Below, one piece after another: positions 61,795 to 61,890 of a stretch of 64,000 nucleotides of DNA. Within the stretch, counting starts at the first letter, position 1. The number at the start of each line of letters is the position of its first letter. Under the pieces are notes generated by a model, which saw nothing but the letters and a program-made list of their open reading frames with translations, searched no databases and had not been told where the DNA came from. Location: the NCBI GenBank assembly GCA_963797235.1, contig CAWCOX010000008.1, positions 115,764 through 179,763 on the forward strand, given 5' to 3'. Source of the stretch: an uncultured delta proteobacterium. Lineage in GTDB: Bacteria > Desulfobacterota > Desulfobaccia > Desulfobaccales > 0-14-0-80-60-11. Position numbers and translations under genes: made by a program.

Positions 61795-61890
61795 CTATTT
61801 GCCCCAGACCTTCACGGCCTGCCCGGCCAGCGCCACGCCCCAACCCGAGGACAGCAGATAAAGGGACGTAATCAATAAATGCATGGCCAT
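61795..61890 (-). CDS. 31-aa hydrophobic small ORF between nifH and nifI1 (MAMHLLITSLYLLSSGWGVALAGQAVKVWGK)
   Basis: ATG 61890 is preceded by AGGAGGAAGAC. TAG at 61795-61797. One predicted TM helix. Below the ORF-track length cut-off. Confidence 0.5.
   Translation of the reverse strand: MAMHLLITSLYLLSSGWGVALAGQAVKVWGK

Follow-up and report, generated by a model that had tools for sequence, protein, structure and literature searches.

What is encoded by the short hydrophobic reading frame that lies between nifH and nifI1 in the nitrogenase operon of an uncultured delta proteobacterium of the order Desulfobaccales? The window analysed here is a stretch of 64,000 nucleotides (assembly GCA_963797235.1, contig CAWCOX010000008.1, positions 115,764 to 179,763), and at positions 61795-61890 the initial annotation had recorded an unannotated 31-codon open reading frame (ORF) with a strong Shine-Dalgarno sequence. 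We refer to this frame and its relatives as ORF A. With a confidence somewhat above even, we favour the view that the frame in the window is a translated small-protein gene, a diverged member of a family that Desulfobaccales encode downstream of nifH; its product would probably reside in or on the membrane, and its position suggests an accessory role.

ORF A lies on the minus strand, as do all the other features of the window for which coordinates are given below. It begins with the ATG at 61890, runs for 31 codons (MAMHLLITSLYLLSSGWGVALAGQAVKVWGK) and ends in the TAG at 61797-61795, just ahead of a GC hairpin. Read directly from the window, the ATG stands 15 nt past the nifH stop, and within that stretch a Shine-Dalgarno sequence, AGGAGG (61901-61896), is placed 5 nt ahead of the ATG. 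All of these elements are thus present as the initial annotation described them, and only its figure of 165 nt for the nifH-nifI1 spacer needs correction. The spacer is 179 nt long (61727-61905) when counted from the nifI1 ATG at 61726, the start that gives an N-terminal MIMIRS and is used in all relatives; the shorter figure corresponds to an upstream TTG at 61741. By our own calculation around 40% of the ATGs at the G+C content of the window are followed by at least 31 open codons. An open frame of this length therefore carries no significance of its own, and the case stands on the ribosome-binding site and on conservation in relatives.

That conservation was studied in 83 species genomes of the order Desulfobaccales, which were searched for NifI1 orthologues and with ORF profiles; the genome of the window comprises 3.69 Mb in 23 contigs. 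A NifI1 orthologue adjoins nifH in 49 genomes, and two broken copies bring the number of nif-carrying genomes to 51. The ORF A profile gave exactly one match per genome in 32 of the 83 genomes. The synteny is strict, with all 30 of the matches that were fetched lying in the nifH-nifI1 gap and the other two placed there by their coordinates. Divergent A-like ORFs were found by eye in two further genomes, G061 (two in tandem) and G077 (one, followed by the unrelated ORF B that is described below), so that ORF A is present in at least 34 of the 51 nif-carrying genomes. The question of whether the frame recurs in related nifH-nifI1 spacers can therefore be answered: in many of them a small hydrophobic ORF with its own ribosome-binding site occupies the same site.

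The main type of ORF A has the consensus core MNLIxAxLVxLWVAGWxxAAxRAGLKAR followed by a variable tail. A word-indexed protein search returned 16 proteins of 31-48 amino acids (aa), all unnamed or 'hypothetical', and an exhaustive HMMER search of 1.84 billion representative proteins gave 33 matches at E<=0.001, of which 32 are 31-55 aa long and share the N-terminal core. Five independent database members could be placed in their genomic context. All five directly follow nifH and four have a P-II gene next downstream, the contig of the fifth being uncheckable on that point. A locus search with a narrower family alignment added three loci among genome contigs. No Pfam or NCBIfam model matches ORF A, no protein found carries a name other than 'hypothetical', and neither ORF A nor ORF B had a match outside the order in 401 genomes sampled across the phylum Thermodesulfobacteriota.

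Coding tests on the main type used 27 distinct sequences and an ungapped core of 30 codons. The ratio of non-synonymous to synonymous substitution (dN/dS, NG86) is 0.375 in frame and rises to 0.77 and 1.46 when the frame is shifted. Averaged over sequence pairs, codon positions 1, 2 and 3 differ by 0.43, 0.30 and 0.52, a periodicity with a permutation p of 0.00025, and as many as six codons are used for the conserved Leu and three each for the conserved Ala and Gly. Furthermore, 31 of 32 ORF A family members carry a Shine-Dalgarno-like motif 3-11 nt ahead of the start. A start around 12-70 nt past the nifH stop was taken as a mark of the family, and the window, with its 15 nt and its AGGAGG, conforms to it. 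The codon-level conservation that was looked for is clearly found in the main type of ORF A, which is protein-coding and under purifying selection. We read ORF A as an undescribed, Desulfobaccales-specific family of hydrophobic peptides of 31-65 aa, encoded directly after nifH.

In 31 of 32 family copies no Lys or Arg precedes the hydrophobic segment, and 2-10 follow it. This fits a predicted peptide that crosses the membrane once, the N-terminus facing outwards and the C-terminus lying in the cytoplasm. For the main type, the Hessa energies summed over the hydrophobic segment range from -2.6 to +1.5 kcal/mol.

The copy in the window belongs to a second, diverged subtype, A1 (consensus MAMHLLIMSLYLMSSGWGVAMARQAVKVWGR), which was also seen in G001, G003, G050, GCA_040960995 and three metagenome variants; searches of JGI metagenomes for further A1 copies, by peptide pattern and by degenerate DNA pattern, found none. 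The A1 frame is open and free of indels in six variants (the window, L002, L035 and the metagenome variants X1, X4 and X6), in which the replacements are mostly hydrophobic for hydrophobic and the SSGWG core is invariant. When A1 is compared with the main type by hhalign, the alignment spans all 31 residues and is in register from the start codon onwards, with a probability of 79% and E=1.6e-5; it pairs SGW..A..R of A1 with AGW..A..R of the main type. On the strength of this result we retain the homology of the two subtypes as probable. Within the family motif L-W-x2-G-W-x2-A-x2-R the window has L12, G16, W17 and A20, the first Trp being replaced by Leu and the Arg by Gly. Its peptide has no Lys or Arg before the hydrophobic segment and two after it (K27 and K31), and AlphaFold2, run with the family alignment, models it as one helix covering residues 2-30 (pLDDT 78.5). 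The initial annotation had proposed a single transmembrane-like helix with a basic C-terminus. The predicted helix and the placement of the basic residues stand, but the propensity of this copy for the membrane is marginal, with a summed Hessa energy of +2.25 kcal/mol.

Transcripts of relatives are represented in wetland metatranscriptomes, where contigs with 97-100% identity to relatives cover nifH and nifI1. Some of these contigs, from relatives of both subtypes, continue past the 3' end of nifH and cover the first third of ORF A. Among the main-type cases, X25 record 4 matches L060 with zero mismatches, and other runs yield loose ends with the reading ...GGAGGGAACCATGAATCTTATCA; an A1-type relative is covered over 61829-61944 by X28 record 28. 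Metatranscriptome contigs of this kind can also contain DNA. The ORF A copies of relatives are co-transcribed with nifH, as expected in an operon, an observation that has no bearing on translation. The proposal that the ORF specifies a membrane protein co-expressed with nitrogenase is supported as regards co-expression, by RNA contigs that join the copies of relatives to nifH, and is left weaker as regards the membrane, by the marginal hydrophobicity noted above.

Upstream of ORF A lies nifH, the gene for the nitrogenase iron protein (61906..62730; ATG at 62730, stop TGA at 61908-61906), whose orthologues carry the Fer4_NifH domain of Pfam and whose product is 79-100% identical to NifH of the relatives. 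Around 40 nt upstream of the nifH start a sigma-54-type -24/-12 element, TGGCAC-N5-TTGCT (62769-62784), was read directly from the sequence and is likely to be the promoter of the mRNA that carries ORF A. Downstream lie the PII-type genes nifI1 (61370..61726), whose ATG stands behind a GGAGG at 61739-61735, and nifI2 (60993..61373), which overlaps the nifI1 stop, followed by nifD (59236-60897) and nifK (57842-59239). In orthologous genes nifI2 has the Pfam P-II domain, and nifD and nifK have Oxidored_nitro.

The nifH-nifI1 gap varies widely in content. In 15 genomes it holds ORF B, an unrelated frame of around 41 aa (..RWLTxFLREQAEMSAxxELFxExPWRTES), and G001 (NifH 99.6% identical to that of the window), G022 and GCA_040960995 carry both ORF types; the genome of the window has ORF A alone. 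The gap is only 14-16 nt long in three nif-positive genomes, and in one it measures 138 nt and contains neither ORF. G027 is among the genomes that have neither of the two small ORFs. The genus of the window includes genomes with A1 only, with A1 and ORF B, with ORF B and an A1 stub, with ORF B only and with the main type only. The gap is thus a fast-changing slot, although the genes on either side of it are 88-100% identical. Whatever gene follows, the sequence that joins the nifH stop to a ribosome-binding site and an ATG is near-identical (compare the minimal spacer, GGAAGGAGGAAGAACCATGATT, with the window, GGTCAGGAGGAAGACATGGCC), and would fit either an insertion of small ORFs behind an old nifI1 start or their precise deletion.

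Some individual spacers deserve mention. ORF B was seen in spacers L002, L004-L009, L011, L012, L018, L020-L022, L035, L077 and L078; most copies terminate in a TGA that overlaps the nifI1 ATG (ATGA), and the ribosome-binding site of nifI1 doubles as the final codons of ORF B (PWRT). The 301-nt spacer L073 (G061:C31) has tandem hydrophobic ORFs, one of them main-type-like (MNLLMYAAAYLLWLWVAQ...) and the other A1-like (MSLTFLTMAVQAVSSGWLRAVFWHVLKVCCR), which suggests that the two subtypes could be paralogues, not orthologues. Some genomes of genus g3 (spacers L052, L056 and L065) have a further conserved hairpin between the nifH stop and the small ORF, with the sequence GGCGGGA-(about 12 nt)-TCCCGCC, and in L065 it takes the place of the N-terminal codons of an A1-type ORF. 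In L024 (G003, 75% complete) and L025 (G037, 73% complete) nifH, the small ORF and nifI1 all have frameshifts or stops, lesions that could reflect assembly error or a decaying nif cluster.

A number of observations weigh against the ORF of the window being a working member of the family. A profile built from 62 main-type sequences scores it at 2.9 bits, and other A1 copies at 9-12 bits, and such a main-type-only profile does not distinguish it from the other open frames of the genome, which number 94,575 in all; the idea that the ORF is an obvious member of the main family was accordingly not upheld. The summed Hessa energy is +2.25 kcal/mol in the window and +3 to +8 kcal/mol in the other A1 copies. 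The codon-level evidence for selection found in the main type does not clearly extend to A1, where six sequences give a dN/dS of 0.65 for the frame itself and of 0.52 and 1.25 for the shifted ones, with no frame-specific signal; three A1 sequences alone give 0.38. The window differs from its nearest strain, X1, at three sites, all of them non-synonymous, and almost all of its differences from the nearest strains are of this kind. Codon 23 (61822..61824) is GGG, for Gly, in the window and CGG, for Arg, in every other A1 copy, including variants X1, X4, X6 and X9. Arg at this position is near-invariant (at least 90% in the family alignment) and occurs in most main-type copies, and among A1 copies the window alone has lost it. 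In four congeners (L004 and L006-L008) A1 is internally deleted, leaving the ribosome-binding site, the ATG and around 10 codons, fused or coupled to ORF B; in L021 it is frameshifted and in L065 its N-terminus is replaced. The three nif-positive genomes with a spacer of 14-16 nt indicate that the ORF is dispensable. The junction that these minimal spacers share with the window means that the ribosome-binding site may be inherited rather than selected for ORF A. Finally, nifB (53260-54528) and nifE (56027-57429) are each split into several frames in the assembly, in which nifH, nifI1, nifI2, nifD and nifK are intact; the breaks could be real frameshifts or indel errors, and the contig names of relatives (MFD..., contig_N) hint at long reads. 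The copy in the window is atypical and may be under relaxed constraint, and as a diverged copy it is of lower importance than the family to which it is assigned.

Much of this evidence would suit a decaying relic, or a merely translated spacer, whose peptide no longer functions although ribosomes may still start at the inherited site. What would then matter, if anything, is not the peptide but the transit of ribosomes over a long spacer that bears a repeat hairpin, through protection from Rho or RNase, opening of the hairpin or coupling to nifI1. The lack of a frame-specific signal in A1, the excess of non-synonymous changes, the lost Arg, the stubs and the frameshift in congeners and the shared junction all speak for it. 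It has to contend with a frame that has stayed open and free of indels in six variants, with its conservative replacements and invariant SSGWG, and with the profile-profile similarity to a family that is clearly selected. Moreover, a spacer of 14-16 nt works in three genomes, and a translated spacer is therefore not required as such. Of the alternatives to a functional small-protein gene this is the one that we take most seriously, while considering it unlikely.

The GC hairpin behind the stop codon bears on a further alternative. It is a dispersed copy of an element resembling repetitive extragenic palindromic (REP) sequences and not a terminator specific to the ORF. In the window it reads GGGCGGCCC-GGC-GGGTCGCCC (61775..61795), with a 9-bp GC stem whose first G is the last base of the TAG. 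An exact-stem scan of the genome gave 44 strand-hits, equivalent to around 22 places, in intergenic gaps (for example C3:169298, C4:91069 and C9:4690, minus strand), with the consensus GGGCGACCC-NGC-GGGTCGCCC, usually followed by CTACG. The copies often lie near other GC hairpins and G-rich GGGGTTGGGG tracts. In A1-type relatives, whose frames likewise end at the hairpin, the element is kept with one G-U/A-U change in the stem. The hairpin is followed by no U tract, and a terminator scan made no call there. We considered whether ORF A might itself be part of the repeat, and rejected this, as the 70-nt flanks of the 44 strand-hits have nothing in common with ORF A; the likeness to REP-type elements covers the hairpin only and the body of the ORF lies outside it. 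Only the last G of the TAG, and perhaps also the preceding A-rich codon, belong to the repeat. With the closing base of the TAG supplied by the repeat, an ancestral tail of greater length may have been cut short by it.

It could be argued that the frame is open by chance in non-coding DNA, and that what is conserved is an RNA or DNA element of the spacer, for example the REP hairpin or a site at which the RNA is processed or stabilised. The frequency of open frames of this length at this G+C content, the presence of GC-rich REP-like hairpins in this and other nif gaps and the dN/dS values of the six A1 sequences all lend this some weight. We nevertheless regard it as improbable. An Rfam scan of the region gave chance-level matches only, and a single-sequence fold of the spacer was no better than that of shuffled sequence (z = -0.30). 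RNAalifold of the A1-type sequences found only the REP hairpin to be structured, with no supporting covariation in the ORF (covariation term +0.76), and the flanks of the other REP copies are unlike the ORF. The strong ribosome-binding site at ideal spacing, and the resemblance to a proven coding family at the same site and in register, are likewise difficult to reconcile with chance.

Very improbable, finally, is a role as a leader or attenuator for the expression of nifI1-nifK, or as a hydrophobic peptide that resembles type I toxins: the ORF does stand directly upstream of nifI1 with a hairpin after it, and resembles small hydrophobic toxins in size and composition, but a leader would have to manage with a dispersed REP copy that has no U tract, no called terminator and no alternative structures, with no runs of a regulatory codon and with C-terminal tails, where arrest motifs would sit, that are the variable part of the family, while a toxin finds no match to a Pfam toxin family and no promoter-like site called within the spacer on either strand, the scan having also called no terminator in the spacer and having placed both of its promoter-like sites upstream of nifH on the minus strand.

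Returning to the reading that we favour, of a small-protein gene, the data are consistent with a model where ORF A forms part of a nifH-orfA-nifI1-nifI2-nifD-nifK mRNA that probably starts at the sigma-54-type promoter ahead of nifH, and would be translated from its own AGGAGG after the nifH stop. The peptide would then fold into one helix of around 29 residues, with its basic residues C-terminal, and would insert with its N-terminus out and its C-terminus in the cytoplasm. There it might serve the regulation of nitrogenase as an accessory that is associated with the membrane and is not essential, plausibly in concert with NifI1 and NifI2, which are of the PII type, a link that is suggested by gene position alone.

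In anaerobes, nitrogenase is restrained after translation chiefly by the NifI1/NifI2 switch-off, and we know of no membrane or micro-protein partner of these proteins. A small peptide gene that is conserved and under selection at this site in most nif-carrying Desulfobaccales would add a new accessory component to a much-studied operon; in its slot it alternates with a second small-protein family. Wetlands, peat and sediments are habitats in which these bacteria are common and transcribe nifH. The case also illustrates that unannotated genes are still to be found in nif operons.

Among characterised small proteins, KdpF of kdpFABC and CydX of cydABX offer a structural comparison. These are proteins of around 30-40 aa with one hydrophobic helix, each with its own ribosome-binding site in the operon of the complex that it serves, and proteins of this type are often overlooked by annotation. 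ORF A is like them in its size, its predicted helix, its own ribosome-binding site and its place within an operon, without sequence similarity (no Pfam or NCBIfam match), and its copy in the window differs in being only marginally hydrophobic. Nitrogenase and NifI are soluble, and hence ORF A, unlike KdpF and CydX, has no evident membrane partner.

The closest comparison by location is ORF B, which scores 79-95 bits against NCBIfam NF052407, the "NOVOEXAE family nitrogen cycling protein" (cut-off 70 bits), and has no match in Pfam. NF052407 matches neither the ORF of the window nor anything else in its genome. A novel family of 52 aa has been drawn in a nifH-nifI1-nifI2-nifD-nifK context (Rodriguez del Rio et al. 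2023, PMC10849945, Fig. 2b), and ORF B of one relative is 52 aa long when read from an upstream ATG. NF052407 is probably this FESNov family, as its name has the form of a FESNov identifier; a literature search for the word NOVOEXAE found no paper, and the family is not listed in those parts of the FESNov supplements that we consulted. NOVOEXAE resembles ORF A in its slot, its order, its similar size (around 41 aa) and its likewise unassigned function, and the two co-occur in the close relatives G001 and GCA_040960995. It is unlike ORF A in being unrelated in sequence and not hydrophobic and, within the order, in being seen in family f1 only, with ORF A found in both families. The statement that no described gene lies at this position must therefore be qualified, since NOVOEXAE occupies it in close relatives, though it is a different protein and is absent here. 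The slot has been noticed before for ORF B, through FESNov and NCBIfam, and what ORF A adds, in a setting whose kind is known, is a new family of small proteins.

A functional comparison is provided by the archaeon Methanosarcina mazei. There sP36 mediates the interaction of GlnK1 with AmtB1 at the membrane (Habenicht et al. 2023, PMC10714827); it is a cytoplasmic protein of 61 aa that relocates to the membrane, and in the abstract of that report no link to the nif operon is described. Another small regulator of nitrogen metabolism in this organism, sP26, is cited in bioRxiv 10.64898/2025.12.07.692841, a study in which NifI1 and NifI2 sequester NifDK. Our literature search on nifI1 together with small proteins or small ORFs found none described in the nifH-nifI1 gap. 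A micro-protein acting with a PII protein at the membrane gives a functional precedent for one acting with NifI1 and NifI2. Going further, and as a speculation that we think has little chance of being correct in full, the gap could be a cassette slot for alternative micro-proteins (ORF A as a membrane peptide, NOVOEXAE as a soluble one, or both) that tune the sequestration of nitrogenase by NifI1/NifI2, with ORF A tethering the NifI-nitrogenase complex, or coupling it or an ammonium or energy signal, to the cytoplasmic membrane. ORF A would then be a bacterial counterpart of the sP36/GlnK/AmtB system, born in this lineage downstream of an old nifI1 ribosome-binding site; the comparison of sP36 with ORF A is one of function, and no homology is claimed.

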